Below are positions 5,125 to 39,213 of a stretch of DNA of 64,000 bases, one piece after another. This DNA comes from Squalus acanthias (lineage: Eukaryota): positions 558,001 through 622,000 of the forward strand of contig CM059432.1 in assembly GCA_030390025.1 (NCBI GenBank), in the 5' to 3' direction. The translations under genes were made by a program, and so were the position numbers. Position 1 is the stretch's first letter. Each line of letters starts with the position of its first letter. The notes under the pieces were generated by a model. The model ran no database searches, was not told the origin of the DNA, and saw only the letters and a list, made by a program, of their open reading frames with translations.

Positions 5125-5714
5125 AGCATTACTACAATTGTACAGGGCCTTAGTGAAACCACACCTGGAGTACTGTGCACAGTTTTGGTCTCCTTATCTA
5201 AGGAAGGATATACTTGCCTTGGAGGCGGTGCAACGAAAGTTCACTAGATTGATTCCTGGGATGAGAGGGCTGTCCTATGATGAGAGGTTGTGTAGAATGG
5301 GCCTATACTCTCTGGAGTTTAGAAGAATGAGAGGTGATCTCATTGAAACATACAAGATTCTGAAGGCGATTGACAGGGTAGATGCTGAGAGGTTGTTTCC
5401 CCCTGGCTAGAACTAAGGGACACAGTCTCAGGATAAGGGGTCGGCCATTTAAGACCGAGATGAGGAGGAATTTCTTCACTCAGAGGGCGGTGAATCTTTG
5501 GATTTCTCTGCCCCAGAGGGCTGTGAATGCTCAGTCGTTGAGTATATTCAAGGCGGAGATCGATAGATTTTTGGACTCTAGGGGAATCAAGGGATATGGA
5601 GATCGGGCGGGAAAGTGGAGTAGAGGTCGATGATCAGCCATGATCTTATTGAATGGCGGAGCAGGCTCGAGGGGCCGTATGGCCTACTCCTGCTCCTAAT
5701 TGTTATGTTCTTAT
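5125..5714 (+). mobile_element. CR1-type LINE 3' fragment containing the left duplication breakpoint
   Basis: LYRALVKPHLEYCAQFWSPYLRKDI...RRMRGDLIETYKI. Confidence 0.85.
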
Positions 5715-6179
5715 AACCGGGTTGCCAAATGGATGAATTACTCAAATATTTTGAGACACGTTTGTCCACATCTCTTTAAAAGAAGGAAAGAAAGGACTTT
5801 GCATTTATATGGCCTGGGGACGTCCCAAAGAGCTTTGCGACCAATGAAGTACTTTTTGGAGTGTAGTGACTATTATAATGTAGGAAACGCGGTAGCCAAT
5901 TTACACACAGCAAGAGCCCACAAACAGCAATGTGATAATGACCAGATAATTTTTTTTCAGTGATGTTGATTGAGGGATAAATATTGGCCAGGACACCGGG
6001 AGAACTCCCTGCTTTTCTTCAAAATAGAGCCATGGGATCTTTTACCTTTGCATAAGGTCCCACGTCTACCTTTTAGGCACACTCTTCTTTTCTCTCTACC
6101 TCCAGCCGCTTTTGAAAGTAATTGTTTTGAGTTTTAATAGCCTGCAATGCAGTGATTGAGGCTTTTTTCTTTTGCGTAG

Positions 6180-6299
6180 GCTATGGAGTCTGGAGCAAGT
6201 CGCAGCAGCTCGACTCAGAAGAGGCCGGTGCGGACACAGGCTGTCATTGACCAGTCCGACATGTACACACATGTCCTGTCCGTGTTCACCGAGAAAAAG
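6180..6299 (+). CDS. RMC1: RMC1 exon ~15 (duplication copy 1)
   Basis: tag|...|gttagc. AMESGASRSSSTQKRPVRTQAVIDQSDMYTHVLSVFTEKK. Confidence 0.92.
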
Positions 6300-7254
6300 G
6301 TTAGCAGCGCCGAATGAGATTCGCCTGATTTTGGAAAAGGAAAAACTGACAAAAGCAAAGTGAACAGAAGCTCATTCTGTTACGATGGGATTACTGTAAA
6401 ACTGATCCCAAAGAGACAAGTCACATTAATGGGGATAATCTGAGAGGCCAACTCGGAAAACCTTTGATTCTGATACCCAACACCAATCTAATTGGTGTTG
6501 ACGAAATTGAGGTGGAGTACCACAAAGAAAGACTTGCATTTCTATAGCGCCTTTCACAACCTTAGGATGTCTCAAAGCGCCTTACCGCCAGTGAAATACT
6601 TTTTGAAGTGTAGTCACTGTTGTAATGTAGGGAAACGCGGCAGCCAATTTGCGCACAGCAAGGTCCCACAAACAGCAATGTGATAATGACCAGATAATTT
6701 TTTTTTCGTGGTGTTGATTGAGGGATAAGTGTTGTACAGAAAGCAGAATAAAGATTGGGAAATACTGATGGAATTAAAAGAGACAGACAGAAAAAGTTGA
6801 AAAGAAAATGATTTTAATTTAAAAAATTCTCCAACACTAATTAACTTCTGAAGGAATGAGAGTCCACACTTGTAAAATAAAATTTTGAGGGCCAGAGAGG
6901 TTGTTCAGCAGTAATTATCAATTATGACGCCGTTAAAAAATCACTTGCTCCTGAATGCACCAGCCCTAACTTTTTATGGCGTGTTTAGTGTGGAACTAGT
7001 GGGCAAGTAGCCCAAGTTCACGCCATTGTAATCATTTCAATGCCGAGTCTATCGGCGAGGACTGCAATAGCGCATCGTGTGGTGGAGCAGGGAATCTCTG
7101 ACAGCAAATTCTGGATTTCTGCGTTTAACTGCGCATGTAATCCAGAGGTTGCTGTCAGATTTACCCTGTAATAACGGTGATCGCTGATCGCCTCACCGGT
7201 ATTATTACCGCAGATTCCTGGCCAATATATTTTAAAAAGTGAGAGTTAAATTAG

Positions 7255-7740
7255 GGTACAGAAGAGATTTATTAGAATGGTTCCAAGGATGAGGGAATAC
7301 GGTTATGTGGAAAGACTGGAGAAGCTGGGGTTGTTCTCCTTTGGAGCAGAGAAGGCTAAGAGGAGATTTGATAGAGGTGTTCAAAATTATGAAGGGTTTA
7401 GATGGAGTAAATAAAGAGAAACTGTTTCCAATGGCTGAAGGGTTGACGGCCAGAGGGCACAGATTTAAGGTGATTGGCAAAAGAACCAGAGGCGACATGA
7501 GGAAAAACTTATTTACGCAACGAGTGGTTAGGATTTGGAATGCGCTGCCTGATAGGGTGGTGGAAACAGATTCAATAGTAGCCTTCAAGAGGGAATTGGA
7601 TAAATACTTGGAGAAAAAATTGCAGGGATATGGGGCAAGAGCGGGGAGTGGGACTAACTGGATTGCTCTTCGAAAGAGCTGGCGCAGACTGGATGGGCCG
7701 AATGGCCTCCTTCTGTGCTGTACTATTCTATGATTCTATT
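7255..7740 (+). mobile_element. CR1-type LINE 3' fragment (duplicate at ~24030-24517)
   Basis: LEQRRLRGDLIEVFKIMKG...FTQRVVRIWNALP, with (attctatg)-like tail. Confidence 0.85.
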
Positions 7741-7955
7741 GTGATCCTGGAGTTTCTGCTGGTTAGGATAGTATTTATCAGACTTTTATCCTGCAAGCTT
7801 TACGTGTAGGTATTTAGCATAAGTTAGAGTCCACAATACTGCAGGTTTTACCTGGGCTGCTCGGAGCGGGCTTGATGGGCTGAATGGTCTCATTCCATAC
7901 TTGTGTTCTGATGCGTCTCTGCCATGTGATTTTCTACAACTTCTTCTTTTAGCAG

Positions 7956-8033
7956 GACCTTCCCCACAAGTTCATTAGTGCAGTATTGATGGAATACATC
8001 CGGTCTCTCAATCAGTACCAGATCACAGTCCAG
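7956..8033 (+). CDS. RMC1: RMC1 exon ~16 (copy 1)
   Basis: tagcag|...|gtaatc. DLPHKFISAVLMEYIRSLNQYQITVQ. Confidence 0.92.
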
Positions 8034-8125
8034 GTAATCCGTGCCCTTCACTTCAATTAACAATATTGAGATTGGTGTACTTTGATTCTTGTCTGCTTGC
8101 TTTAAAACGTTGTATTTTATTCCAG

Positions 8126-8230
8126 CATTACCTGTACGAATTGGTCATAAAGACCCTAGTCCAGCACAGCCTATTCTACATGCTCCATCAGTTTCTACAG
8201 TACCATGTGCTCAGTGACTCCAAACCACTG
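8126..8230 (+). CDS. RMC1: RMC1 exon ~17 (copy 1)
   Basis: ccag|...|gtgaga. HYLYELVIKTLVQHSLFYMLHQFLQYHVLSDSKPL (Mic1 domain). Confidence 0.94.
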
Positions 8231-9234
8231 GTGAGATACCCGACTTCCTGAAGAATTCACCAGACTGTTGAACTGGCCTTTGACTGAGTAAACCATACTT
8301 TTATATCTTGTAATAAAAATATCCCTGAAAATATCTTGGATGTAAAGGCAAGGCAAGAACATTCACGTCATCTTAGAAAGTTAGAATTACATCAGAAATA
8401 TGAGCAGCAGTAGGCCACGCGGCCCCTCGAGCCTGCTCCGCCATTCAATAAGATCATGGCTGATCCTCGACCTCAACTCCACTTTCCCAAATTGCACGAG
8501 GATCAGAGATAACCACTAAAGTTAAAAGACTAAGAAAGAAAGACTTGCATTTCTATAGCGCCTTTCACAACCTCCGGACATCCTAAAGCGCTTCACAGCC
8601 AATGAAGTACTTTAGCAGTGTAGTCACTGTTGTACTGTAGGCCTCGCCCCCCCATTACCTCCGCCCCCCCCACCCATCTCTGTCACCTTCTCCAACCCAC
8701 AACCCTCCGAGATCTCCGCGCTCCTCCAAATCTGGCCTCTTGAGCATCCCCGATTTCCATCGCTCCCCCATTGGCGGCCGTGCCTTCAGCTGCCAAGGCC
8801 CTAAGCTCAGGCATTCCCTCCCTAAACCTCTCCGCCTCTCATTCCTCCTTTAGGTCGCTCCTTAAAACCTACCTCTCCTGTCCTAATACCTCCTTATGCG
8901 GCTCGGTGTCAAATCTTGTCTGATAACACTCCTGCGAAGCATCCTGGGATGTTAAAGGCGCTATATAGATGCAGGTTCTTGTTGTTGGAGGCAGTACTCT
9001 TTATGACCCCTTAAAGTTTGAGGATGATGCTCCCTTGTGTGTTTCTACCCTGTGTCACACACCATCTGCTCCTGGGCTGGTGGGTGACCTATTGTGAGTG
9101 CAGTGCTGCTCTAAAATCGACCTTTGGGAGGTGTGCGAGAGGCGCCCCATTTAATAAATCGTACGACAATCATTTGAAACTTTGGAGCTGCATGCAGACA
9201 TTATATCGATTTTACACGAGCTTTTATCTTCCAG

Positions 9235-9303
9235 GCCTGTCTGCTTCTATCGCTGGAGAGCACCTACCCTCCTGCACATCAACTGTCCCTTGACATGCTA
9301 AAG
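9235..9303 (+). CDS. RMC1: RMC1 exon ~18 (copy 1)
   Basis: ccag|...|gtagga. ACLLLSLESTYPPAHQLSLDMLK. Confidence 0.93.
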
Positions 9304-10356
9304 GTAGGAACTCGCTTGTCTTTACATTCACTTGGCAGGTCTCTAAAGCCTCCACAGGTGAAATAATCCCTAAATGCTTTCTGGCAGCCTCTTACTTGCT
9401 TAATCTTGTTCCGCCCCCCCCCCCCCCCCCCGGCCCATTCAAGCACTAAAAGAGCCAAGATGGGATGGAGTTCTTTTTTACAAAACATGACGAACGCCCC
9501 TTAATGGGTCCTTTTACAACTGAATGATTGGTGTAGAAAGTTGTTCAGTATGGAGTGTGTTCCCTTACCCATTCTCTAAAGCAATCTTTTTCACAATCAT
9601 AGAATGATACAGCACAGAAGGAGGCCATTCGGCCCATCGTGCCTGTGCCGGCTCTTTGAAAGAGCTCTCCCATTAGTCCCACTCCCCCTGCTCTTTCTCC
9701 AAAGCCCTGCACATTTTCCTTTTCCAGTCCACCTGGCCTAATATTTCCTTATGAGGCTCGGGGTCAGATTTTGTCTGATAACGCTCCTGTGAAGCTCCTT
9801 GGGATGTTTTACTACGTTAAAGGTTCTATATAAATACAATATATATCGCCAATGCAGCACCTGTGTGACTACGTGAACGTGACTTCTCTGTGATATTACC
9901 ACAAGCAAAATCTTCAACATTATGGCTCAGATGTCAAAAAAAACTTAAAACCTGCTTCATCGAATGGCTTACTGATTGAAGCAATGCCTGGTTGTGGAGC
10001 TGTGAAATCCTGGGATGAGAGGTGTTGTCCTGTGAGGAGAGATTGTATAGAATGGGCCGATACTCTCTGGAGTTTAGAAGAATGAGAGGTGATCTCATTG
10101 AAACACACAAGATTCTGAGGGGGATTGACAGGGTAGATGCTGAGAGGTTGTTTCCCCCTGGCTGGAGTGTCTAGAACAAGGGGGCATAGTCTCAGGATAA
10201 GGGTTCGGCCATTTTAGACTGAGATGAGGAGTAATTTCTTCACTGAGGGTTGTGAATCTTTGAAATTCTCCAGCCCAAAGGGTTGTAAATGCTGAATCGT
10301 TGAGTATATTCAAGGCTGAGATAGATTGATTTTTGCACTCTAGGGGAATCAATATA

Positions 10357-10818
10357 TGTGTATACAGCACCTCATCTTTCGTTTAGGCACTTTACAGCCT
10401 TCTGGACTCAATATCGAGTTCAACAATTTCAGGTCAAAACCTCGGCCCCTACCTATCCACCCTTTTGGTTCATGCCTTTTTCCTTTTTTTCTCTCTCTCC
10501 CCCCACGGCAGCTGTCTCTCATTCTGCCAGCATTTCACACTTCACACTTCTAGCCACCTTTTTGTTTCTTAACCTGTCCCATTACCATCTCGTCTTGCCT
10601 TGAGCATCTCTTATCTACTTACCATAGTTATTCCTCCCCCCAGCCTCCCCCTTGCTTTTTTATCTGTTTCATTTCCTGCTTTTTTCTCAGTTCTGACGAA
10701 GGGTTTCGACCTGAAACGTTAACTCTGTTTCTCTCTCCACGGATGTTGCCTGGCCTGCTGAGTTTTTCCAGCGTTTCCTGTTGTTTCAATTTTCCAGCAT
10801 CCGCAGTATTTTGCTATC
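10357..10818 (+). mobile_element. Penelope-like element 3' end (duplicate at ~27128-27628)
   Basis: QHLIFRLGTLQPSGLNIEFNNFR (GIY-YIG C-terminus), then a pyrimidine-rich UTR and a hammerhead motif. Confidence 0.75.
10689..10724 (+). ncRNA. Minimal type I hammerhead ribozyme motif
   Basis: agtt-CTGACGA-agggt-ttcg-acct-GAA-ACGT-T-aact: stem I agtt/aact, stem II closed by a UUCG loop, palindromic stem III. Confidence 0.7.
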
Positions 10819-10954
10819 GTATCCTATTTTTATGTTTATCTAGCTTCCCCTTAAATGCATCTCTGCTATTGGACCTCATGTCACCAAAGATATGGGGCAA
10901 AGTGCCCAGCCACTCTGCAGGAGTCGGGTTTCGATTCTTGGACACTACAGCAGA

Positions 10955-13177
10955 GGCACTGGGGTGACAAACCTCTGAACAATTCTGGTCGCCATATTAT
11001 AAAAAGGATATAGAGACACTGGAAGAGGGTGCAAGAAAGATTTACAAGGAGGATACCAGAAATGCGAGGGTATACCGATCAGGAAAGGATGAACAGGCTG
11101 GGTCGCTTTTCTCTTGAAAAGAGAAGTATGACAGATGCCAGGTCGAGAATACGGCTAAATATAGAAAGTTCAGAGGAGAAGTGAAAAAGAAAATGAGAGG
11201 TTATGAGAATAGAATGGCAGCTAACATAAAAGGTAATCCAAAAGTCTTCTATAGGCATATAAATAGTAAACGGGTAGTAAGAGGAGGGGTGGGGCCAATT
11301 AGGGACCAAAAAGGAGACCTACGCATGGAGGCAGAGGGTATGGGTGAGGTACTAAATGAGTACTTTGCATCTGTCTTCACCAAGGAAGAAGATGCTGCCA
11401 TAGACATGGTGAAAGAGGAGGTAGAGGAGATACTGGATGGGATAAAAATTGATAAAGAGGAGGTAATAGAAAGGCTGGCTGTACTTAAAGTTGATAAGTC
11501 ACCAGGACCAGATGGGATGCATCGTAGGCCACGGAGGGAAGTAAAGGAAGAAATCGCAGAGGTACTGACCATAATCTTCCAATCCTTCTTAGAAACGCGG
11601 GTGGTGCCAGAGGACTGGAGAATTGCAAATGTTATACCCTTGTTCAAAAAAGGTTGTAAAGATAAACCCAGCAACTACAGGCCAGTCAGTTTAACCTTGG
11701 TAGTAGGGAAGCTTTTAGAAACAATAATCAGGGACAAAATTAAGTCACTTGGACAAGTGTGGATTAATTAAGGAAAGCCAGCACGGATTTGTTAAAGGCA
11801 AATCGTGTTTAACCAACTTGATCGAGGTTTTTTGATGAGGTAACAGAGAGGGTTGATAAGGGCAATGTAGTTGATGTGGCGTACATGGATTTCCGAAAGG
11901 CGTTTGACAAAGTGCCACATAATAGGCTTACCAGCAAAGTTGAAGCCCATGGAAAAAAGGGACAGTGGCAGCATGGATACGAAATTGGCTAAGTGATAGG
12001 AAAGAGAGAGTGGTGGTGAACGGTTGTTTTTCCAGACTTGAAGGTATACAGTGGTGTTCCCCAGGGGTCGGTTCTAGGACCACTGCTTTTCTTGATATAT
12101 ATTAATGACTTGGATGTGGGTGTACAGGGCACAATTTCAAAATTTGCAGATGACACAAAACTTGGAAGTATAGTGAACAGTGAGGAGGATAATGATAGAC
12201 TTCAAGAGGACATAGACAGGCTGGTGGAATGGACGGACACATGGCAGATGAAATTTAACGCAGAAAAGTGCCAAGTGATACATTTTGGTAGAATGGGGAG
12301 AGGAAATATAAACTGAAGGGTATAATCCTAAAAGGGGTGCATGAACAGAGAGACCGAGGGGTATATGTGCACAAATCGTTGAAGGTGGCAGGGCAGGTTG
12401 AGAAAGCGATTAAAAAAAGCTTATGGGATCATGGGCTTCATGAATATAGATAGAGTACAAAAGCGTGGAAATGATGAACCTTTATAAAACACTGGTTCGG
12501 CCTCAACTGGAGTATTGTGTCCAATTCTGGGCACCGCACTTTAGGAAGGATGTGAAGGCCTTCAAGAGGGTGCAGAAAAGATTTACGAGAATGGTTCCAG
12601 GGATGAGGGACTTCAGTTACGTGGATAGACTGGAGAAGCTGGGGTTGTTCTCCTTGGAGCAGAGAAGATTGAGGGGAGATTTGATAGAGGTGTCCAAAAT
12701 CATGAGGGATCTGGACATAGTAGAGAGAAACTGTTCCCATTGGCAGAAGGGTCGAGAACCAGAGGACAGATTTAAGGTGATTGGCAGCAGAACCACAGGC
12801 GACATGAGGAAAAACTTTTTTACGCAGCGAGTGGTTAGGATCTGGAATGCACTGCCTGAAAGGGTGGTGGAGACAGACTCAATCACGGCTTTCAAAAGGG
12901 AGAAGTATCTGAAGGAAAAAAATTTGCAGGGCTACAGGGAAAGGGCAGGGGAGTGGGACTAGCTGAAGTGCTCTTGGAGAGTTGACCGAATGGCCGCCTT
13001 CCATGATGTAACTATTCGATGGAAGGCCGAGGGGTGACCGAATAGAGGTCTTTAAAATTATGAAAGGTTTTGAGAGTGGATGCAGAGAGAGTGTTTCCAC
13101 TTGTGGGGAAGAGCAAAACTAGAGGCCATCAATATAAGATAGTCACCAAGAAATCAAATAGGGAATTCAGAAGAAAC
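10955..13177 (+). mobile_element. CR1 LINE ORF2 (RT) fragment nested in another CR1 3' fragment (duplicate at ~27765-30230)
   Basis: KSPGPDGMH, VPEDWRIANVIPLFKKG..NYRPVSLT and SGVPQGSVLGPLLF..FADDTKL, with frameshifts. Confidence 0.9.
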
Positions 13178-13608
13178 TTCATCAATGCCCACACTGGAGG
13201 TTGTGTTATGGGAGCTTTGTTACAGTCCGCTGGTTTGCTCATATTCAGATGTTGGTTAAACCTCTTCCAAAAATTCAGCCATGGCTTTAGAGACAATCGG
13301 CCAATGCCTGTCGTTTGGTCGGGAGAGTCTCCCACCTGGCTCTTCAGAAGTGAAACAGAGCAGCAGTGCACTAAATAATGGAGACTGACTCTTTCCATTA
13401 ATGAATGCTTTGGTAGCATCTCCTAATCTGAACATGAAATCCAGAATTCATGTTGGTGAGGCAGAGGGGGGGGGGGGGAACATTGCTCATTTACTACAAA
13501 GCACTGGACACTGCATGGATTGTACATGGTTGGCAACATGATCAACTTTGCTATGGATATGTGCCAAATGTTCTCTTAAACAAGCTCTCTCCCCTTTCAC
13601 TATTGCAG

Positions 13609-13834
13609 CGACTCTCCACAGCCAACGATGAGATTGTGGAAGTGTTACTGTCCAAACACCAGGTTCTGGGTGCACTGAGGTTTATTCGAAGTGTTGGCAG
13701 CCATGACAACATATCGGCCCGGAAATTCTTGGATGCAGCGAGACAGACTGGAGATGCAATGCTGTTCTACACCACCTTCAAGTTTTTTGAACAGAGGAAT
13801 CAGAGGTTACGAGGAAATTCACAATTTACACCAG
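13609..13834 (+). CDS. RMC1: RMC1 exon ~19 (copy 1)
   Basis: gcag|...|gtgagt. RLSTANDEIVEVLLSKHQVLGALRFIRS...FFEQRNQRLRGNSQFTP. Confidence 0.94.
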
Positions 13835-14918
13835 GTGAGTACAACCCAGAAGTGCTTTTGTAGAGAACTGGGGGGACTGGTAGGGAGAAAATAAGCATAG
13901 GTTCTCATCGATTACTGCAATACCTCACCTACAATGGTGGATTAACCACTCACTTACCCATAATTCATACAAGATCAGGAAAGAATGAGTTTACCAAATG
14001 AGTACTTTCATAGCAGTCTTTAATGAACAGCAAGTCACATTACAAAATTGCAGCTTTAAGTGTATTTACATGTTTAATCAATCAAGAACTGAAACTCAAT
14101 TCTACTTTCCCCTATTTTGTTTTGGATCCAATGAGAGAGAGGTCCCATCTGCTCCCTCAGATGGGCCTAAGATCCTATGGCATTTTGAATAGGACTTTCT
14201 GGTGAGCTGGTGAATATTGATCCCTGAACCAGCATCAAAAACAGATTCTCTGGTCATTTATCTTTGCACGTGGGAGCTTGCCGTATGGTTGCCCCATTGC
14301 CCTTCATTACAACTGACATGGCTTTGTAGCACTTTGGGATGTCCCAAGGTCTTAAGGCAGTATAAATACAAGTGTTTTTTCCCTGTGATTAGCTTGCTTT
14401 TTGGCAGTGAAAAATATGCAAAGTTGATCATTTAAAAAACATTAACTCCTGAGATCTGCTGGTATTAATTTGGGTAAATTGTTTTAAGTGTGGCTGTTTT
14501 TTAAAAACTAACCTGTCCCTCAGTTTAGATTAAAAGCTCATTTAGTGGGGTGGGGGGGGGGGGGAAGTATTGCTGTGTTACACATCAGCATTTAAGCCAG
14601 CTTGAGTCACACTTGTGTCCTTCTGATTTACCTTTTATGCAGCATCAGTATGACATTTATGCCAAGTGTCAAATGGCATCCTTACTTCGATAGGAAGGAG
14701 CTTGGGCAGCAGTAGCAAGCATGTGCCATAAAGCATTCTCTGCTACCACTCCTTCAATTGGAACAGGGTTTTTTTTTTAAAAATGGCACATCCTTCAGTT
14801 GTTGGGTTTTTAGATCCTTGTGGAAGGGGATTTTTTAGCTTACTTTGATATCAACTCCCTCATGGAAATGCATTGTACTTGAGCACCATTAATGAGAATT
14901 CTTTTTTTTAATTTTTAG

Positions 14919-14998
14919 GAGAGCATTGCGAAGAACACATCTCCCATTTCAAAAGCCTTTTTGGAGAACAAGCACTTCTGACACCTGTGGCTGTATGA
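14919..14998 (+). CDS. RMC1: RMC1 terminal coding exon ~20 (copy 1)
   Basis: tttag|GA GAG CAT... gives GEHCEEHISHFKSLFGEQALLTPVAV*, with TGA at 14996-14998. Confidence 0.92.
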
Positions 14999-15058
14999 AC
15001 TCTCAGGACTGTTAGCACAGAAAAGCAATGCACCATTAGTTATTGAATGTCTAGAAAC

Positions 15059-15064
15059 TTTATT
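15059..15064 (-). terminator. Candidate NPC1 polyadenylation signal (copy 1)
   Basis: TTTATT on + is AATAAA on -, about 370 nt downstream of the NPC1 stop. Confidence 0.45.
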
Positions 15065-15244
15065 TGTGTATTATAAAAGGAGCATAAAAAATGTACACAA
15101 TTTTGGCATGTATTAAAAATATGCATTAGTCACTTCCCAGTGTCATTCTTTTAACTAGTCAGCTGGAAAGAGTAAACTAGCATTGCAATTACCAGTTACA
15201 GATCCACATCTCTGCTGAATTACCAGTTAAGGTATTACTAATCC

Positions 15245-15283
15245 AATAAAACTGGAAACAGTCAGGAACCTTCAATAAATAAA
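15245..15283 (+). terminator. Candidate RMC1 polyadenylation signals
   Basis: AATAAA at 15245-15250 and overlapping AATAAATAAA at 15274-15283. The equivalent first signal in copy 2 is at 32791-32796. Confidence 0.55.
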
Positions 15284-15433
15284 GTAGTCTGTTCTGTAGC
15301 AAACTAGCCAATTTCCTGAGTTCAAAGTACTAAGAAACTTCTGCATTAAACTGCAAAGACAGTTCGAAATCCTTTGAATTTCATCAGAATCTGTATGGGG
15401 TCAATAGTCCGCTCTTGATTCTGAAGCTCTTGG

Positions 15434-17532: not shown

Positions 17533-18139
17533 CTACAAGGGGATAAAGAAAAAACTCCATTAATGGCAAATCAATATTTATTCTATTGTCCCAGATTGCA
17601 AGACTGGACCCCATTATTCCTTCAACTGAAAATCAAACTAGTTCTATTACAGCACCATTTGCAGTATTAGGAGCATGAACGCTCACTCACTGCACTTTGT
17701 ACTCCTAGAAACACCCATAAAATAACTTTCCACACCCTTGTCCTCCAACACTGGTCCATTATTGCAGGGCAAGATGAAGAGGGTGAGCACAGAAGACCAA
17801 TGACCTGCACAAAGTGACTGGCCAGAGCAAGCTGGAGGCAAATGCAATAATTGCAGATTCAAATTAAAGTACATACCAGGAGTAGTTGAGTTACAAGAAA
17901 GAAAATTGGGAGAGGGGAACTGGGACTGCTGGTTGAAAGTGGAAGAGAAAGGGAGTGAGCAATAGGGACAGATTAAAACAAGGTGCTTGACACCAAAAGA
18001 AGGTAAGAGTCACAAAGCACAACATATGGTGAAGGGAGAAGGAACCTTGGAGCTCGAGGGATCAAACCTACACATGCCCACATTTACCAAGTACCTGCAG
18101 GATCAGTCACAGCAACAGCTCTCCACAGGCAGCGAAATC

Positions 18140-19820: not shown

Positions 19821-19858
19821 TTACAAGCTTTCGGAGCTATCGCTCCTTCGTCAGGTAA
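19821..19858 (-). ncRNA. Minimal type I hammerhead ribozyme motif
   Basis: Reverse complement reads ttac-CTGACGA-a-ggagc-gata-gctcc-GAA-AGCT-T-gtaa. Confidence 0.72.
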
Positions 19859-27226: not shown

Positions 27227-27251
27227 ATATATATATATATATATATATATA
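27227..27251 (+). repeat. (AT)n microsatellite, copy 2 only
   Basis: An atat run of about 25 nt, absent at the equivalent position ~10452. Confidence 0.9.
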
Positions 27252-27498
27252 CACATTTTATCCACCCTTTTGGTTCATGCCTTTTTCCTTTTTTTTCTCT
27301 CTCTCCCCCCACGGCAGCTGTCTCTCATTCTGCCAGCATTTCACACTTCACACTTCTAGCCACCTTTTGTTTCTTAACCTGTCCCATTACCATCTCGTCT
27401 TGCCTTGAGCATCTCTTAATGTCTCTACTCACCATAGTTATTCCTCCCCCCAGCCTCCCTCTTGCTTTTTTATCTGTTTCATTTCCTGCTTTTTTATC

Positions 27499-27534
27499 AG
27501 TTCTGACGAAGGGTTTCGACCTGAAACGTTAACT
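27499..27534 (+). ncRNA. Minimal type I hammerhead ribozyme motif (duplicate of 10689-10724)
   Basis: Identical sequence agttctgacgaagggtttcgacctgaaacgttaact. Confidence 0.7.
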
Positions 27535-30500
27535 CTGTTTCTCTCTCCACGGATGTTGCCTGGCCTGCTGAGTTTTTCCAGCGTTTTCTGTTGTTTCAAT
27601 TTTCCAGCATCCGCAGTATTTTGCTATCGTATCCTATTTTTATGTTTATCTAGCTTCCCCTTAAATGCATCTCTGCTATTGGACCTCATGTCACCAAAGA
27701 TATGGGGCAAAGTGCCCAGCCACTCTGCAGGAGTCGGGTTTCGATTCTTGGACACTACAGCAGAGGCACTGGGGTGACAAACCTCTAAACAATTCTGGTC
27801 GCCATATTATAAAAAGGATATAGAGGCACTGGAGAGGGTGCAAGAAAGATTTACAAGGAGGATACCAGAAATGCGAGGGTATACCTATCAGGAAAGGTTG
27901 AACAGGCTGGGTCGCTTTTCACTTGAAAAGAGAAGTATGACAGATGCCAGGTCGCGAATACGGCTAAATATAGAAAGTTCAGAGGAGAAGTGAAAAAGAA
28001 AATGAGTGGTTATGAGAATAGAATGGCAGCTAACATAAAAGGTAATCCAAAAGTCTTCTATAGGCATATAAATAGTAAACGGGTAGTAAGAGGAGGGATG
28101 GGGCCAATTAGGGACCAAAAAGGAGACCTACACATGGAGGCAGAGGGTATGGGTGCGGTACTAAATGTGTACTTTGCATCTGTCTTCACCAAGGAAGAAG
28201 ATGCTGCCATAGACATAGTGAAAGAGGAGGTAGAGGAGATACTGGGTGGGATAAAAATTAATAAAGAGGAGGTAATAGAAAGGTTGGCTGTACTTAAAGT
28301 TGATAAGTCACCAGGACCAGATGGGATGCATCGTAGGCCACGGAGGGAAGTAAAGGAAGAAATCGCAGAGGTACTGACCAAAATCTTCCAATCCTTCTTA
28401 GAAACGCGGGTGGTGCCAGAGGACTGGAGAATTGCAAATGTCATACCCTTGTTCAAAAAAGGCTGTAAAGATAAACCCAGCAACTACAGGCCAGTCAGTT
28501 TAACCTCGGTAGTAGGGAAGCTTTTAGAAACAATAATCAGGGACAAAATTAAGTCACTTGGACAAGTGTGGATTAATTAAGGAAAGCCAGCACGGATTTG
28601 TTAAAGGCAAATCGTGTTTAATCAACTTGATCGAGGTTTTTTGATGAGGTAACAGAGAGGGTTGATGAGGGCAATGTAGTTGACGTGGTGTACATGGATT
28701 TCCGAAATTGTTTGACAAAGTGCCACATAATAGGCTTGCCAGCAAAGTTGAAGCCCATGGTAAAAAGGGACAATGGCAGCATGGATACGAAATTGGCTCA
28801 GTGATAGGAAACAGAGAGTGGTGGTGAACGGTTGTTTTTCCAGACTTGAAGGTATACAGTGGTGTTCCCCAGGGGTCGGTTCTAGGACCACTGCTTTTCT
28901 TGATATATATTAATGACTTGGATGTGGGTGTACAGGGCACAATTTCAAAATTTGCAGATGACACAAAACTTGGAAGTAAAGTGAACAGTGAGGAGGATAG
29001 TGATAGACTTCAAGAGGACATAGGCAGGCTGGTGGAATGGACAGACACATGGCAGATGAAATTTAACGCAGAAAAGTGCCAAGTGATACATTTTGGTAGA
29101 ATGGGGAGAGGAAATATAAACTGAAGGGTATAATCCTAAAAGGGGTGCATGAACAGAGACACCGAGGGGTATATGTGCACAAATCGTTGAAGGTGGCAGG
29201 GCAGGTTGAGAAAGCGATTAAAAAAGCTTATGGGATCATGGGCTTCATGAATATAGATAGAGTACAAAAGCGTGGACATGATGAACCTTTATAAAACACT
29301 GGTTCGGCCTCAACTGGAGTATTGTGTCCAATTCTGGGCACCGCACTTTAGGAAGGATGTGAAGGCCTTCGAGAGGGTGCAGAAAAGATTTACGAGAATG
29401 GTTCCAGGGATGAGGGACTTCAGTTACGTGGATAGACTGGAGAAGCTGGGGTTGTTCTCCTTGGAGCAGAGAAGATTGAGGGGAGATTTGATAGAGGTGT
29501 CCAAAATCATGAGGGATCTGGACATAGTAGAGAGAGAGAAACTGTTCCCATTGGCAGAAGGGTCGAGAACCAGAGGACAGATTTAAGGCGATTGGCAGAA
29601 GAACCAAAGGCGACATGAGGAAAAACTGTTTTACGCAGCGAGTGGTTAGGATCTGGAATGCACTGCCTGAAAGGGTGGTGGAGGCAGACTCAATCACAGC
29701 TTTCAAAAGGGAGAAGTATCTGAAGGAAAAAAATTTGCAGGGCTACAGGGAAAGGGCAGGGGAGTGGGACTAGCTGAAGTGCTCTTGGAGAGTTGACCGA
29801 ATGGCCGCCTTCCATGATGTAACTATTCGATGGAAGGCCGAGGGGTGACCTAATAGAGGTCTTTAAAATTATGAAAGGTTTTGAGAGTGGATGCAGAGAG
29901 AGTGTTTCCACTTGTGGGGAAGAGCAAAACTAGAGGCCATCAATATAAGATAGTCACCAAGAAATCAAATAGGGAATTCAGAAGAAACCTCTTTACCCAG
30001 AGAGTGGTGAGAATGTGGAACTCACTACCACAGGAGTGGTTGAAGCGAATAGTATGGATGCATTTAAGGGGAGGCTAGATAAGCATATGGGGGAGAAGGG
30101 AATAGATAGTTATGCTGATGGATTTAGATGAGGAAAGACAAGAGGAGGCTCGAGTAGAGCATAAACACCAGCATAGACTGGTTGGCCTGGCCTGTTTCTG
30201 TGCTGTATATCCTATGTAAACCTGTGTATGTAATATACTGGGCTGTCCTTTTCAGGAGAAACATGCAAAGAAAAACACTGCTTTTGAGGTTGTTCTGTAA
30301 CAGTATTGACCAACCTATTCTGTCTGTGCCCATCTAAACATCAATTAAAGCAGCAAATATTAGCACTGGGGCTAAAATTGGAATTGATATTCAGCACAGA
30401 TTGTGCTCCAGTTGCCCCCGTTGTCTGGTGTTATACACTCCCGAGCTGACCTGTGAATTACATCATGTGCTCCAATAGTGGGCTGAGTGAGCCTGCCTCA

Positions 30501-32604
30501 ATAGCTACCCAAGGCTTTCAATACTGTACAAAATGTAATGTTCCATTTATAAACTTAGAAAACACCCGAGATTGGACAAAATCTCTTCTGGGACTCGACT
30601 AGGAATCTTTACTCATGTTAGTGTTGCGATGGACACCAGTCTCCACCTTTGCTTACCTAGATGCATGTTCTATCAGTTATAGTTTCCTTGACTGACTCCT
30701 GCTGGGTTAGGGACCTCTGCCATCAATGCCCACACTGGAGGTTGTGTTATGGGAGCTTTGTTACAGTCCGCTGGTTTGCTCATATTCAGATGTTGGTTAA
30801 ACCTCTTCCAAAAATTCAGCCATGGCTTTAGAGACAATCGGCCAATGCCTGTTATTTGGTCGAGAGAGTCTCCCACCTGGCTCTTCAGAAGTGAAACAGC
30901 AGCAGTGCACTAAATAATGGAGACTGACTCTTTCCATTAATGAATGCTTTGGTAGCATCTCCTAATCTGAACATGAAATCCAGAATTCATGGTGAGGCAG
31001 AGGGTGGGGGGGGGGGGGGGGGGGGGGAGAAGAGAACATTGCTGATTTACTACAAAGCACTGGACACTGCATGGATTGTACATGGTTGGCAACATGATCA
31101 ACTTTGCTATGGATATGTGCCAAATGTTCTCTTAAACAAGCTCTCTCCCCTTTCACTATTGCAGCGACTCTCCACAGCCAACGATGAGATTGTGGAAGTG
31201 TTACTGTCCAAACACCAGGTTCTGGGTGCACTGAGGTTTATTCGAAGTGTTGGCAGCCATGACAACATATCGGCCCGGAAATTCTTGGATGCAGCGAGAC
31301 AGACTGGAGATGCAATGCTGTTCTACACCACCTTCAAGTTTTTTGAACAGAGGAATCAGAGGTTACGAGGAAGTTCACAATTTACACCAGGTGAGTACAA
31401 CCCAGAAGTGCTTTTGTAGAGAACTGGGGGACTGGTAGGGAGAAAATAAGCATAGGTTCTCATCGATTACTGCAATACCTCACCTACAATGGTGGATTAA
31501 CCACTCACTTACCCATAATTCATACAAGATCAGGAAAGAATGAGTTTACCAAATGAGTACTTTCATAGCAGTCTTTAATGAACAGCAAGTCACATTACAA
31601 AATTGCAGCTTTAAGTGTATTTACATGTTTAATCAATCAAGAACTGAAACTCAATTCTACTTTCCCCTATTTTGTTTTGGATCCAATGAGAGAGAGGTCC
31701 CATCTGCTCCCTCAAATGGGCCTAAGATCCTATGGCATTTTGAATAGGACTTTCTGGTGAGCTGGTGAATATTGATCCCTGAACCAGCATCAAAAACAGA
31801 TTCTCTGGTCATTTATCTTTGCACGTGGGAGCTTGCCGTGTGGTTGCCCCATTGCCCTTCATTACAACTGACATGGCTTTGTAGCACTTTGGGATGTCCC
31901 AAGGTCTTAAGGCAGTATAAATACAAGTGTTTTTTCCCTGTGATTAGCTTGCTTTTTGGCAGTGAAAAATATGCAAAGTTGATCATTTAAAAAACATTAA
32001 CTCCTGAGATCTGCTGGTATTAATTTGGGTAAATTGTTTTAAGTGTGGCTGTTTTTAAAAACTAACCTGTCCCTCAGTTTAGATTAAAAGCTAATTTCGG
32101 TTCAGGGGGAAGTATTGCTGTGTTACACATCAGCATTTAAGCCAGCTTGAGTCACACTTGTGTCCTTCTGATTTACCTTTTATGCAGCATCAGTATGACA
32201 TTTATGCCAATTGTCAAATGGCATCCTTACTTCGATAGGAAGGAGCTTGGGCAGCAGTAGCAAGCATGTGCCATAAAGCATTCTCTGCTACCACTCCTTC
32301 AATTGGAACAGGGTTTTTTTTTTTAAAAATGGCACATCCTTCAGTTGTTGGGTTTTTAGATCCTTGTGGAAGGGGATTTCTTAGCTTACTTTGATATCAA
32401 CTCCCTCATGGAAATGCATTGTACTTGAGCACCATTAATGAGAATTCTTTTTTTTAATTTTTAGGAGAGCATTGCGAAGAACACATCTCCCATTTCAAAA
32501 GCCTTTTTGGAGAACAAGCACTTCTGACACCTGTGGCTGTATGAACTCTCAGGACTGTTAGCACAGAAACGCAATGCACCATTAGTTATTGAATGTCTAG
32601 AAAC

Positions 32605-32610
32605 TTTATT
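32605..32610 (-). terminator. Candidate NPC1 polyadenylation signal (copy 2)
   Basis: TTTATT on + is AATAAA on -, lying inside the duplicated RMC1 3'UTR. Confidence 0.5.
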
Positions 32611-32979
32611 TGTGTATTATAAAAGGAGCATAAAAAATGTACACAATTTTGGCATGTATTAAAAATATGCATTAGTCACTTCCCAGTGTCATTCTTTTAA
32701 CTAGTCAGCTGGAAAGAGTAAACTAGCATTGCAATTACCAGTTACAGATCCACATCTCTGCTGAATTGCCAGTTAAGGTATTACTAATCCAATAAAACTG
32801 GAAACAGTCAGGAACCTTCAATAAATAAAGTAGTCTGTTCTGTAGCAAACTAGCCAATTTCCTGAGTTCAAAGTACTAAGAAATTTCTGCATTAAACTGC
32901 AAAGACAGTTCGAAATCCTTTGAATTTCATCAGAATCTGTATGGGGTCAATAGTCCGCTCTTGATTCTGAAGCTCTTGG

Positions 32980-33065
32980 TCAATGCTGGTTTAACAGTCG
33001 CTCCCGTTCTGTGCCCTTGTACAGGTTGTGCAGTGCAGAAACTTTTCCTCGGTTTACAGTTGGTC
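32980..33065 (-). CDS. NPC1: NPC1 exon 25 (terminal)
   Basis: tttag|GA CCA... gives GPTVNRGKVSALHNLYKGTERERLLNQH*, retaining the dileucine lysosomal sorting motif. Confidence 0.92.
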
Positions 33066-34075
33066 CTAAACACATTTAAACTAGTTAGCAATTAAGACAA
33101 TATTTGTAAACACAGTATAAAATCTCCAACTTAGATGTACTGGAATGCAGAGTGCAAAGCAAGAATTCTCAGCTCAAACTACAATTGTCTGCTAGTGTAC
33201 AAGTTAAACAATGCCTCATTCAGTTGAGTACATGGAAACCACACTTCAGGACAAGGCTCAGGTTGTGAGCATTTTTAGAAAATGACTTCACTCCATTTCC
33301 TCAATCTTGTGGCATTGCTCATGAGGCAGTCTTCAAGGCCAGAGCAGAACAGGGATATTCAGCTGCTACAATGAGTGGTGCTTAATCTGACCTGTAAATT
33401 ACTGCTGTGGAAACTAGTCTCATCCACAGACCAGGAAATTGTACAATAAAAAGGTGCTTGTAATAACCCAGCTTCTCCTCAAAGGCCATAGGAGTAGACT
33501 ATTCAGCAGAGTCTGTTCTGCCATTTCTACCCACCTCTGCTCCATATCCTTCAATACCATGGTGAGCAATTGAACCCCAGCATCTACTGCTGAGGGAATT
33601 CCACACTTCTACCATCCTTTGCATGGTGTTTCCCCAACTTCTCTAGCCAGCAGATGCATGGGTTTCCCCAGCTTCTCTAGCTAGTGGAAAAACTTCTCCC
33701 CATCTATCCCTTTAAAAATCCCCAAAAGCTCAACTCATCCCTTAACCTTCTATATTACAGGGAATACAGACTAGTTTATGTAACCCCTCAATTTAACCCT
33801 TGGAGTCCTGGCAATATTCTGGTGAATCTGCACTGCACTCCTTCCAAGGCCAATACATCCTAAGGTGTGGTAACTTTAGCTTGAATAAGTGACAATAGGC
33901 ACAAGAATTGATAGTACTGTAACAAGAGGAAACCAAATTAATATAATATGCTCCGTGTCAGCAGTGCAAGAATGGCTTAATTGGTTGAATTAAGCATTTA
34001 AAATAAAGTTCAAATGGACAGCCAGATAGTGATGAATTTGCTTTCATAAACAAAAATGGATTTGAACAATCTTAC

Positions 34076-34238
34076 CTATATAACTAAGCATTACAGGAAG
34101 GAATACGAGGCCGTGAGCAGCTCCCAAAAGCACGATCGCCAAGTACATCCTGAAGTAGAAGATCTGGAAAATCTGGGATTTGGCAAATGCCAAGACCACA
34201 ATACCTCCAAACTTAGTTAGTGTGATGCCACTAAATAC
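34076..34238 (-). CDS. NPC1: NPC1 exon 24
   Basis: 163 nt, ag/gt. [54 protein letters not shown]. Confidence 0.95.
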
Positions 34239-34531
34239 CTGGAGAGAGAGGGAGAAAGTTGTAAGCCCAGGTCCTGAGATATACACATGCAGGAGCAGCA
34301 CAACAGCTACAGTACGGATTACCCATCTTTCATGTTGGCAGCAGCTATGAGAAAGGGCAGGCTCCTGTGGTGGGCCAAGTTAATTCCAGTGCTATCTGAA
34401 GTATGTTCAAGATTTAAAAGAATTGTCCTTTAGGATGGCAAAGTTCTAAATAACCCAGATAGTTTGTCGATTTGTTTAGCTAAACATCATGGATCCCGAG
34501 GTGATGCTAGATGCCACATTAAGTTACTTAC

Positions 34532-34645
34532 CGAACTCCCCATATTGGCCAGTGCTTCCTCGGCACGTTCCACCCTGGTTTTCTTCATACTGACAGAAAA
34601 TGCTCGAACTATATGGCTGCAGAACTCAACTGAAATACCACAACA
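34532..34645 (-). CDS. NPC1: NPC1 exon 23
   Basis: 114 nt. [38 protein letters not shown]. Confidence 0.95.
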
Positions 34646-34669
34646 CTACAAGGGGATAAAGAAAAAACT

Positions 34670-35011
34670 CCATTAATGGCAAATCAATATTTATTCTATT
34701 GTCCCAGATTGCAAGACTGGACCCCATTATTCCTTCAACTGAAAATCAAACTAGTTCTATTACAGCACCATTTGCAGTATTAGGAGCATGAACGCTCACT
34801 CACTGCACTTTGTACTCCTAGAAACACCCATAAAATAACTCCATTAATGGCAAATCAATATTTATTCTATTGTCCCAGATTGCAAGACTGGACCCCATTA
34901 TTCCTTCAACTGAAAATCAAACTAGTTCTATTACAGCACCATTTGCAGTATTAGGAGCATGAACGCTCACTCACTGCACTTTGTACTCCTAGAAACACCC
35001 ATAAAATAACT
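34670..35011 (+). repeat. 171-bp direct tandem duplication in NPC1 intron 22, copy 2 only
   Basis: ccattaatggcaaatc...cacccataaaataact occurs at 34670-34840 and 34841-35011, but once at ~17557-17727. Confidence 0.92.
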
Positions 35012-36313
35012 TTCCACACCCTTGTCCTCCAACTCTGGTCCATTATTGCAGGGCAAGATGAAGAGGGTGTGCACAGAAGACCAATGACCTGCACAAAGTG
35101 ACTGGCCAGAGCAAGCTGGAGGCAAATGCAATAACTGCAGATTAGAATTAAAGTACATACCAGGAGTAGTTGAGTTAAGAAAATTGGTAGAGGGGAACTG
35201 GTCACAAAGCACAACATATGGTGAAGGGAGAAGGAACCTTGGAGCTCGAGGGACCAAACCTACACATGCCCACATTTACCAAGTACCTGCAGGATCAGTC
35301 ACAGCAACAGCTCTCCACAGGCAGCAATATCAGTCATAACGGCACAGAAGTAGGCCATTTGGACCATGTTGGCTCGGAGCGATCCAGTCAGTCCCATTCC
35401 CCCGCTCTATCCCTGTAGCACTGCAAGTTTATTTCCCACAAGTGCCTATCCAGTCTCCTTGAAAACATGGAGTGTCTCCACTTCCACCAGCAGCAGGTTA
35501 CAGGTCCTCACCACTCACTGCATAAAAAGTTCACATCACCCTGTATCTCTTACCCAATACTTTAAATCTGTGTCCCATAGTCCTTGTACCATCAACTAGT
35601 GGGAACAGCCTTTTTGTCTAGCCTATCCAAACCAGTCATAATCTTGTACACCTCTATCAAATTACCCCTCAATCTCCTTTGCTCTAATCAAAACAAATTC
35701 AACTTCTCCAACCTGTCCTTTTAGCCAAGATCCCCATCCCCAGAATCAGTTAAATCTCCTCTATACCTTCAAGAGCCTTCACATCTTTCCTAAAGTGTGG
35801 TCACTAGTCTGAACTTTATAAAGATTCAGCATAACTTCTCTACTTTTGTACTCAATACCTCTATTTATGAAGCCCAAGATCCCATATGCTTTGCTAACCA
35901 CTATGTCCTGCCACCTTCAGGGGGCTTATGCACATTAACTCCCAGGTCCCTCTGTCCCTGCACCCTTTAAAACTGTGCCATTAGTATATATTGCCTCTCC
36001 GTTCCTTCTGCCAAAATGCATCACCTCACACTTCTCTATTAAACTCCATCTGCCACTTGTCTGCCCATTCTGCTAGCCTTTGTCCTGTTGCAGTCAATTG
36101 GTATCATTCTCACCTTTTGCCACCCCCAGTTTGGTGTCATCAGCAAATTTAGAAATTCTATTGTATTCCAATATCCATGTCATTGATATACACAAAAAAA
36201 AGCAGTGACCCCAGCAATGACACCACTACCATCCTCCAGTCTGAAAAAAAGCACCATTTACCATAACTTGCTGATTTGTCCTTAAGCCAATTCCTTATCC
36301 AAGCTGCCACTGA

Positions 36314-39213
36314 CCTCAATGGGAATGGGACCAATATCCTTGCAGGGGGTTTGCTAGTGTTGTTGGGGAGGGTTTAAACTAGCTTGGCAGGGGGATGGGA
36401 ACCCAAGTATAGAGTCAATAGGGAGGGAAGAAAAACCAAAAACGTAAAGTAAATTGGAAGGACAGAGGAATCAAGGGCTAGATAGTCAGCAAGGAGGTTT
36501 GCCTGTACTAAATAGTATATACTTCAATGCAAGGAGTATAGCAAACAAGGCAGATGAGCTGAGGGCACAGGTAGATACCTGGGACTATGCTATTAGAGAC
36601 GTGGTTGAAAGGGGCAGGTATGGCAGCTCAACATTCCTGGTTACAGGATTTTCAGATGGGATAGAGAGGGAGGTAAAAGGGAGGGGGGGGGGGGTCACTG
36701 TTAATCAAGAAACTATTACAGCTGTGAGGAGGGATCAAACAAGGCTATATGTGTTGAATTGACAAACAATAATGGGTGATCACACTGCTGGGGAGTACTA
36801 CAGACCCACAAACAGAGGGAGATAGAAGAACAAATATGTAGACAAATTTGAAAAGTGCAACAACTATAGGGGATTTCAACTACCCCAATATTAACTGGGA
36901 TAAAAATGAGAGAAGGTATAGAAGGTGCAGAATTCCTCAAATGCATCCAGGAGAACTTTTATAGCTAGTATGTAGCAAGCCCAACAAGGGAGGTGGTGGT
37001 TCTGGATTAGTTTTAGGGAATGAAGCTGGGCAAGTAGAAGGCGTATCAGTGGGGGAGCATTTTGGTGCTAGTGACCATAATTCTGTTAGATTTAAGGTAG
37101 TTATGGAAAAGGACAAGGATAGACCAGGAATAAAAATTCTAAATTGGGGAAAAGCAAATTTTGCTGAGCTCAGGGGATTTAGCCAGTGGACTGGAAACAG
37201 CTACTTGAAGGTAAATCAGTGTCAGAGCAGTGGGAGGCATTCAAGGAGGAGATCCGGAGGGTTCAGACCAAACATGTGCCCTTAAAGAAAAAGGTGGGAC
37301 TAACAAATCGAGCCACCTGGATGTCTAGAGACACAGGGTAGGATAAAGAAAAAAGGGAGGCGTATGACAGATACCAAGGGCTAAATACTGCAGAATCGAG
37401 AGTACAGAAAGTGCAGGGGTGCAATTAAAAGTTAGGAAAGCAAGAAAAATTCTTGAAGTAAAATCAAGGAAAACCCAAAGATGTTTTATATATTAAGAGT
37501 ACGAGGATAACTAAAGGGTAGGGCCCATTAGAGATCATGAGGGCAATCCGTGTGTGGAAGCAGGAGATGTCAGTAGGGTTCGTAATGAATACTTTGCATC
37601 TGTTTTCACAAAGGAGCGGGGCGAAGCAGACATTGTTATGGGGGGGGGGGGGGGGGGAAGGAGGAGAAGTGTGTAATAGAGAGAGGGAAGTATTAAAGGG
37701 TTTAGCAGCTTTAAGAGTGGATAAATGCCCAGACCCAGATGAAATGTATCCCAGGTTGTTAAGCAAAGCAAAAAAAGTAGCAGCGGCCCTGACCATCATT
37801 CTTCAATCCTCTGGCTTCAGGTGTGGTGCCTGAGGACTGGTAGTGTGGTACCCTTGTTTAAGGGAGAAAAGGATAGACCGAGTAATTACAGGCCAGTCAG
37901 CCTAACCTCGGTGGTGGGAAAATTATTGGAAAGAATTCTGAAGGACAGGACAAGTCTTCATTTCAAAAGACAGATTAATCAAGGATAGTCAGCACAGATT
38001 TGTTAAGGGAAGGTTGTGTCTGACAAACTTGATTGAATTGAGGTAACGAGGGTAGTGCATTTGATTTAGTGTATATGGACTTTAGCAAGGCTTTTGATAA
38101 GGTTCCACATGGCAGACTGGTCACAAAGTAAAGCCCATGGGATCCAGGGCAAAGTGTCAAGCTGGATTCAAAACTGGTTCAGAGACAGGAAGCAGAGGGT
38201 AATGGTTGATGGGTGTTTGTGACTGGAAGGCTGTTTCCAGTGGGGTTCTGCAGGGCTCAGTACTAGGTCCCTTGCTTTGTGGTATATATCAACGATCTTG
38301 ACTTGAATATAGGGCGTATGATTAAGAAGTTTGCAGATGATACTAAAAATCGGCTGTGTGGCGGATACTGAAGGAAGCTGTAGACTGCAGGAAGATATAA
38401 ATAAATTGGTCAGGTGGGCAGAACAGTGGCAAATGGAATTCAATCCGGAGAAGTGAGGTAATGCATTTGGGGAGGGCTAACAAGGAAAGGGAATACACGT
38501 TAAATGGTAGGACACTGAGTAGTGTAGAGGAACAAAGGGACCTTGGAGTGCATGTCCACAGATCCCTGAAGGTAGCAGGCCAGGTAGATAAGGTGGTCAA
38601 GGCAGCATACAAATGCTTGCCTTTATTAGCTGTGGCATAGAATACAAGAGCAGGGGGGGGGGGGGGGGTTATGCTTCAACTGTATAAAACACTAGTTAGG
38701 CCTCAGCTAGAGTACTGCGTGCATCTGGTCACCACATTACAGGAAAGATGTGATTGCACTAGAGAGGGGACAGGGGAAATTTACAAGGATGTTGCTGGAA
38801 GTAGAGAATCTTAGCTATGAGGAAAGACTGTTTTCCTTGGAACAGAGGAGCAACTTGGTGTATAAAATTGAGGGGCATAAAGTGGATAGAAAGGACCTAT
38901 TTCCCTTAGCAGAGGGGTCAAAAACCAGGGGGCACAGATTTAAAGTAATTGGGGGAAGGTTTAGAGGGGATTTGAGGGGAAATTTCTTCACCCAGAGGGT
39001 TTTGGGGGTCTGGAACTCACTGCCTGAAAGGGTGGTAGAGGCAGGAACCCTAACCACATTTAAAAAGTGCTTGGATGTGCACTTGGGATGCTCTAACCTG
39101 CAGGGCTACAGACCAAGAGCTGGGAAGTGGGATTAGGCTGGATAGCTTTGTTGGCCGGCAGACACAATGGGCCGAAATGGCCTCCTTCTGTGCTGTAACT
39201 TAATGATTCTATG
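36314..39213 (+). mobile_element. Long degraded CR1 LINE (ORF1 end, endonuclease, RT, 3' end)
   Basis: YFNARSIANK, SDHN, NYRPVSLT-like and FFTQRVLGVWNSLP motifs with many small deletions. Confidence 0.88.

Follow-up and report, generated by a model that had tools for sequence, protein, structure and literature searches.

A probable tandem duplication of the convergent ends of RMC1 and NPC1 in Squalus acanthias, with one-sided decay at its right edge

Results

The ends of the convergent genes RMC1 and NPC1 stand twice, in direct tandem, in the 64,000-nucleotide stretch of Squalus acanthias DNA analysed here (henceforth the window). Self-BLAST of the window and tblastn with shark RMC1 and NPC1 agree on this arrangement, confirming the repeat of gene ends that the original prediction had drawn from the letters alone. 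We favour an old and real tandem duplication with breakpoints in intronic pieces of long interspersed nuclear elements (LINEs) of the two genes, an account that we consider probable as a whole. That the duplicate is real seems to us highly probable from the sequence, because a real duplication predicts one-sided decay of the kind described below and two alleles of one intron do not.

The self-BLAST aligns 5415-22198 with 22198-37443, mostly at 96.5-97.6% identity and at 89-93% in the blocks of the right end. Copy 1 (5419..22198) runs on its left side into the single upstream exons of RMC1, and copy 2 (22199..37443) runs on its right side into the single upstream exons of NPC1. The copies adjoin without an assembly gap (the window contains 0 N) and, being direct, longer than 1 kb and more than 90% identical, have the properties of a tandem segmental duplication. 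Each holds the six terminal exons of RMC1 on the plus strand and the three terminal exons of NPC1 on the minus strand; the upstream exons of both genes are each found once in the window, as had been predicted. One RMC1 exon matches Pfam RMC1_C (E 1e-29) and PDB 9l0d, and an RMC1 exon is 96% identical to several shark proteins; for NPC1, one exon matches PDB 3jd8, and 97% identity over 77 amino acids links an exon to a Pristiophorus japonicus protein, the best named matches being sharks.

In copy 1, the RMC1 end occupies 6180..14998 (plus strand; exons 6180-6299, 7956-8033, 8126-8230, 9235-9303, 13609-13834 and 14919-14998), and the NPC1 end, which has no adjoining upstream NPC1 exons, occupies 15434..17532 (minus strand; 17419-17532, 16963-17125 and 15434-15519). 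In copy 2 it is the RMC1 end at 22963..32544 (plus strand; 22963-23082, 24733-24810, 24902-25006, 26010-26078, 31165-31390 and 32465-32544) that lacks adjoining upstream exons, and the NPC1 end lies at 32980..34645 (minus strand; 34532-34645, 34076-34238 and 32980-33065). Within a copy the two stops are separated by 435 nt (14999..15433 in copy 1, 32545-32979 in copy 2), and the distance from the RMC1 stop of copy 1 to the NPC1 stop of copy 2 is about 18.0 kb, so that the coordinates bear out the earlier claim of stops some 18 kb apart across copies. The orphan ends facing each full gene are intact, as was also claimed: AG/GT splice sites are preserved in both copies, the spliced RMC1 tail is open in copy 1 and copy 2 alike (226 codons with a single terminal stop) and the poly(A) hexamers of the spare exons are intact. 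The spare exons carry no disabling change and lack only the 5' parts of their genes; they do not show the disablement of truncated pseudogenes, which sets them apart from the human examples discussed below but is no prerequisite for a duplication. The breakpoints lie inside two convergent genes and leave truncated 3' ends. At the junction (22186..22201), the middle of a LINE open reading frame 2 (ORF2) is joined without a gap to the 3' part of another LINE, the breakpoints being non-matching parts of two LINEs; microhomology was looked for at 22198/22199 and was not established.

One-sided decay of the right-edge LINE

The right edge of the repeat contains a nested LINE pair. Its copy-1 version, which stems from an NPC1 intron (18147..22185), consists of an older inverted piece (18147-19170) and, from 19171 onward, a younger forward element whose endonuclease frame is open; the copy-2 version, which lies inside NPC1 (35339..39887), has the same 5' join but is heavily deleted and frameshifted, its forward element reaching to 39218. 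The younger element, which we take to be a CR1, carries an endonuclease domain and sits nested in the older inverted one, and because the 5' join is identical in both copies the two versions go back to one insertion. Over 2,087 aligned columns, copy 2 has 38 gaps and copy 1 has 2 (binomial P 1.5e-9), and CpG losses number 15 in copy 2 and 0 in copy 1 (P 6e-5). The gap skew is found within the younger element alone (22:0, copy 2 to copy 1) and again in the older element with its flank (18:2, P 4e-4); the ORF2 frame is open in copy 1 and frameshifted in copy 2. When polarised by other LINEs in the window, 28 tail substitutions are derived in copy 2, 12 in copy 1, and 12 are unclear. Gaps of 2-5 bp account for 21 of 39 (15 are of 2 bp), and deletions of 6-86 bp also occur. 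The TN*T motif stands at 11 of the 21 short deletions against 6.8 expected (P 0.04), a weak excess that does not go beyond microhomology.

Two technical causes of the skew can be dismissed. One is polishing of copy 1 towards the consensus of its family, from whose majority it departs by letters of its own (at 21022 and 21203, among others). Sequencing error behind the copy-2 gaps is ruled out by the NPC1 exons to the right of 40 kb, which have no evident frameshift, and is further countered by gaps of up to 86 bp accompanied by CpG transitions.

The NPC1 body as a whole differs from the RMC1 side. Each of the 16 bins of 2 kb between 30001 and 62000 has a CpG observed/expected ratio within 0.05-0.29, and each of the 7 between 1 and 14000 a ratio within 0.36-0.59; taken over 32983-62000 and 1-14998, the ratio is about 0.15 and about 0.5, respectively. 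Ten repeat pairs are split between the two genes; their NPC1 members have 40 gaps and their RMC1 members 11 (P 6e-5), whereas control pairs with both members in the same zone are even (26:27 and 12:10). The NPC1 body is thus a distinct mutational zone, for which position and transcription are inseparable as causes in one window. Two side observations belong here: a CpG-rich, apparently young piece of a retroelement lies in an NPC1 intron at 62700-63300, where the NPC1 body has its one 2-kb bin above 0.3, and neighbouring NPC1 introns contain two members of a single LINE subfamily (37689-39218 and 42580-44057), 87% identical and with independent deletions (10 and 17 gaps).

Given that NPC1 introns are deletion-rich and CpG-poor, the tail skew suggests that, since the two copies separated, the copy-1 tail has likely spent most of that time outside NPC1. 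Whether the one LINE insertion, inside and outside NPC1, is a paired record of strong transcription-driven germline deletion is a more tentative matter, and we put this slightly short of an even chance. The paired contrast is nonetheless the more novel point of the locus: all 15 CpG losses and 19 times as many short gaps fell on the inside copy, and since the same LINE is compared inside and outside NPC1, the usual confounding by element age and sequence is removed. The contrast suggests that deletion and CpG-loss rates are very different among the gene bodies of this shark.

Divergence between the copies

The share of substitutions between the copies is uneven: the first 340 columns have 4.7%, the RMC1 part 1.5%, the untranslated region (UTR) together with the last NPC1 exons 0.4-0.7%, and the right-edge LINE 5.9%. 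The left edge stays near 4% over 750 bp and is raised relative to other repeats of the RMC1 part (16 of 340 versus 76 of 4,248 columns, P 0.001), with changes falling on both lineages (8 on copy 2, 5 on copy 1, 4 unclear). Edges that diverge by 4-6% around a centre at 0.4-1.5% are the pattern expected under gene conversion; raised edges with a homogeneous middle have been described for duplicates subject to it, according to the available passages of PMC2588116. Neither this uneven profile nor the asymmetry of the right edge was part of the original prediction. Even divergence on both lineages, as between alleles, is present in the centre and absent at the right edge.

In about 1,040 coding columns the copies differ once, in RMC1 exon 19 (exon numbers are those of the original prediction), where 13817 is A (Asn) and 31373 is G (Ser). 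The residue is Ser in 40 of 47 named shark and ray records, the other 7 lacking the motif; a clearly harmful effect of the Asn of copy 1 was considered and rejected, Asn being present in 68 of 127 motif-bearing proteins.

Public sequencing runs

Contigs from four of 24 listed public runs were compared with 20460-34600 at a likeness of 90; all are graph contigs, and about 55% of run X5 was read. Among the 24, five DNA-type runs from two samples contain 0.71-0.73 of the words of the stretch, a share that is uninformative on the copy-1 tail, about half of the stretch being repeat. Both forms of a 730-bp indel are found in two of two DNA runs (X3 and X5), the copy-1 form being deduced from contigs that end at exactly 30721, where the sequence common to both copies resumes. 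In X5, depth is about 16-19 over the part that only copy 2 has and 25-40 over shared parts, a half ratio that fits a duplication or a heterozygote alike. Contig content is about 1.4 billion 31-mers in X3 and about 2.2 billion in X5, which hints at low coverage of X3 and runs opposite to the hint from depth described in the Discussion. At 25 listed differences in low-copy sequence, the letter is that of copy 1 in 19 and of neither copy in 6. Raised edges and mosaic letters fit gene conversion or unequal exchange; graph contigs cannot phase them.

X6 and X10 are unstranded RNA-like runs, the RNA label being a guess; a contig of X10 joins two NPC1 exons. In both, one continuous contig spans the 435-nt region between the stops, and in X10 this contig splices on into the next NPC1 exon, so the 3' UTRs of RMC1 and NPC1 likely overlap. 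Further RNA-like contigs reach 31567 and 31663 in the last RMC1 intron, near minus-strand ATTAAA at 31574 and 31628. The contigs at 31567-32492 (X6 and X10), about one third as deep as the UTR contig next to them, may possibly represent a long NPC1 3' UTR that covers the last RMC1 exon.

Assignment of RNA by copy-specific variants, by which the separate use of the two copies was to be recognised, gave a divided result. Some letters follow the expected copy: 32570 has the copy-1 letter in both RNA-like runs, 32884 the copy-2 letter in X6, and intron letters of X10 are those of copy 1 at 7 of 8 listed sites on the RMC1 side and of copy 2 at 3 of 3 sites on the NPC1 side. Others contradict it, since RMC1 mRNA-like contigs have the copy-2 base at 31373 in exon 19 in two of two runs, an NPC1 intron contig of X6 has the copy-1 base at 34316 (one of two runs), and X10 covers part of the 730 bp that copy 1 lacks (X6 does not cover this segment, which by itself is not evidence). 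This mixture neither proves nor refutes copy-specific use.

Copy-specific insertions and indels

Within the right-edge LINE, copy 1 alone has an insertion at 19773..20998 with 514-bp inverted arms (98% identical) and an 11-bp target-site duplication. We presume it to be Penelope-like; its frame gave no Pfam match, and smaller inverted pieces of its family lie at 3915-4230. Copy 1 alone also has a LINE 3' piece on the minus strand at 21347..21938 and a short interspersed nuclear element (SINE)-like insertion on the plus strand at 15548..15969, 28 nt before the last NPC1 exon. The latter is one of three related elements in the window (the others at 48596-48990 and 49717-50057), two of which have an internal tandem unit of 47-48 bp. 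Copy 2 alone has the 730 bp at 29991..30720, both forms of which occur in X3 and X5 as described above, and a near-perfect 171-bp tandem duplication at 34662..35011, just upstream of an NPC1 acceptor. The 730 bp were likely deleted from copy 1, because a LINE continues into the segment. As a sign of orphan status such insertions are weak: three lie in the spare part of copy 1, but the 730 bp are likely a deletion from the same copy.

Discussion

How might such a locus arise and persist? We envision that a non-homologous or template-switch event created the junction and left each gene with one full end and one spare, likely passive end. Conversion or unequal exchange would then hold the central 12 kb or so at allele-level similarity while the edges escape, and by overwriting changes in the spare exons would keep these intact. 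With the duplication, the copy-1 tail would have passed out of the NPC1 body, which is prone to deletions and CpG losses, and have decayed slowly thereafter. Copy number may vary among individuals, because unequal crossover would rebuild an ordinary single locus. The separation of the gene ends in cis is in this account a by-product of geometry, with no evidence of selection.

Several findings weigh against a real duplication. The spare exons should have gathered 7.8 private changes if they changed at the intronic rate, and 2.9 if they changed as sequence within 100 bp of exons does; they have 0 (P 4e-4 and P 0.054, respectively), so that strong conversion must be assumed, and this need is the weak point of the reading that we prefer. 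Across the UTR and the last two introns of NPC1, no more than 10 of 1,715 columns are different, even though copy 2 lies in the fast regime. Where contigs lie, copy 1 and copy 2 differ by 0.75-0.79%, a figure inflated by the alignment of a run of G, and each of the four runs differs from copy 2 by 0.55-0.58%, with contigs that mix copy-1, copy-2 and third letters; the two differences being similar and the letters mixed, the central differences are not fixed markers of the copies. Among the matches listed, which are dominated by LINE contigs and omit 531,331 pieces, no contig crosses 22198/22199, an absence that does not amount to a negative result. Depth over shared parts (25-40 in X5, 5.3-9.3 in X3) is near that of low-depth contigs from other loci (21-27 in X5, 6-11 in X3), a comparison that rests on four and five hand-picked low-depth rows, with higher-depth rows left out; contigs of both runs are unbroken across the SINE site at 33092. 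The samples behind X3 and X5 may therefore be single-copy, or may lack the SINE insertion.

An alternative is that two haplotypes of a single locus were placed in tandem by the assembler, as in a false heterotype duplication. The allele-level centre, with other samples mixing the letters of both copies, is the best evidence for such an artefact; the single difference in about 1,040 coding sites, the location of both breakpoints in repeats and the possibly single-copy depth of X3 and X5 add to it, and 61-92% of false duplication lies on the same scaffold in long-read assemblies of the Vertebrate Genomes Project, in the passages available of PMC9516828. Alleles of one intron should, however, decay alike, whereas gaps stand at 38:2 and CpG losses at 15:0, and a jump of the assembly into another copy of the element does not explain a skew that is also found outside the young element (18:2). 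False duplications, moreover, usually have an assembly gap between them (available passages of PMC9516828) and these copies have none, although a gap may have been wrongly closed. We therefore regard the artefact as improbable, if the most serious of the alternatives; were it correct, the locus would come down to a routine error of assembly, with the 38:2 skew still to be explained separately. It is also conceivable, though very unlikely in our estimation, that a real duplicate lies elsewhere in the genome, for example as a circle that carries the same junction after re-insertion, and was misplaced here. This would account at once for allele-like centres, for depth that is possibly single-copy and for a junction fragment that is old; it would require two gapless mis-joins, and a dispersed copy should diverge along its whole length.

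If the duplication is real, selection might have kept it for relieving RMC1 and NPC1 of overlap and polymerase collision, an effect that the original prediction had ascribed to it. The probable overlap of the 3' ends (the inter-stop contig in both RNA-like runs and the contigs to 31567 and 31663) speaks in its favour, as do the apparent persistence of the duplication although collapse is possible and the X10 introns, mostly of copy 1 on the RMC1 side and of copy 2 on the NPC1 side. The claim is nevertheless unsupported: the RNA-like letters are unsorted at 31373, at 34316 and within the 730 bp, and with 3 differences in 438 columns between the copies of the UTR (more than 99% complementary in trans), the mRNAs would still pair in trans. 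No such role is reported for the same layout in human in the passages available to us. We found no publication on this locus or on uncoupling by duplication in the searched literature, outside which most subscription papers fall. The pathway link of MON1-CCZ1 and Rab7 to NPC1, which the original prediction took as known, is published (PMC7642327), in passages that are silent on gene position. Selected uncoupling, taken by itself, appears unlikely to us, and we give no more credence to the broader proposal that the duplication is old, shared by related sharks, kept for separate 3' ends and holds a paired mutation control. RMC1 and NPC1 are presumably neighbours in human as well. Among other species, Rhincodon typus has a 312-amino-acid 'NPC1-like' model comprising the C-terminal part only, and Amblyraja radiata has two NPC1-like models (1,277 and 851 amino acids); such models may reflect splitting, false duplication or partial copies of a similar kind.

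Least probable, on a par with a misplaced duplicate, is that the spare exons serve as alternative 3' ends reached by read-through and splicing. In register and about 17 kb downstream, each gene does have another set of last exons; none of the spare exons, their splice sites or their poly(A) hexamers is damaged, and the NPC1 intron contig of X6 has a copy-1 letter. Conversion alone, however, can keep spare exons intact, and there is no inter-copy splice among the matches listed, in which unstranded contigs could not show one.

Like a false heterotype duplication (Ko et al., 2022, PMC9516828, in the passages available), the shark locus has adjacent near-identical copies and partial genes in a heterozygous, repeat-rich region; unlike one, it has no gap, and its right-edge divergence is one-sided. 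The decay of the tail resembles ID-TOP1 deletions (Reijns et al., 2022, PMC8866115, available passages) in that short deletions are enriched in a gene body, and differs from them in its weak TN*T enrichment, its 6-86-bp deletions and its CpG loss.

The closest counterparts are human. In MTX1-GBAP1-MTX1P-GBA1 (1q21), as in the shark, a convergent pair is duplicated in tandem, with GBA1/MTX1 copies about 16 kb apart, and the working genes, with both pseudogenes in between, are each opposite a partner copy; those copies are 96-98% identical and undergo conversion and unequal crossover, and GBAP1 has a 55-bp exon deletion (PMC8255797 and PMC12064688, in the passages available). The spare shark copies, by contrast, are short 3' ends without a disabling change. 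GBAP1 is nearly full length, and collapse of the shark locus, unlike that of GBA1/MTX1, would lose nothing; one partner is lysosomal in each system. The RCCX module (STK19-C4A-CYP21A1P-TNXA-STK19B-C4B-CYP21A2-TNXB) likewise arose by a tandem duplication that left behind shortened ends of both flanking genes, STK19B being 914 bases of a 3' end and TNXA being truncated; opposite-strand genes overlap at their 3' ends there, as they likely do in the shark, and haplotypes that differ in segment number (one, two or three) segregate (PMC8362596, available passages). TNXA is disabled by a 120-bp deletion, which has no equivalent in the spare shark ends, and the RCCX unit holds whole genes (C4 and CYP21), so that dosage changes, whereas in the shark only a shared UTR lies between the ends. 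The locus is thus likely a real case of the layout known from GBA1/MTX1 and RCCX and, if real, a clean form of it with no whole gene inside. Since collapse would be harmless and dosage unchanged, one-copy and two-copy haplotypes could then test whether tail-to-tail overlap carries a cost.

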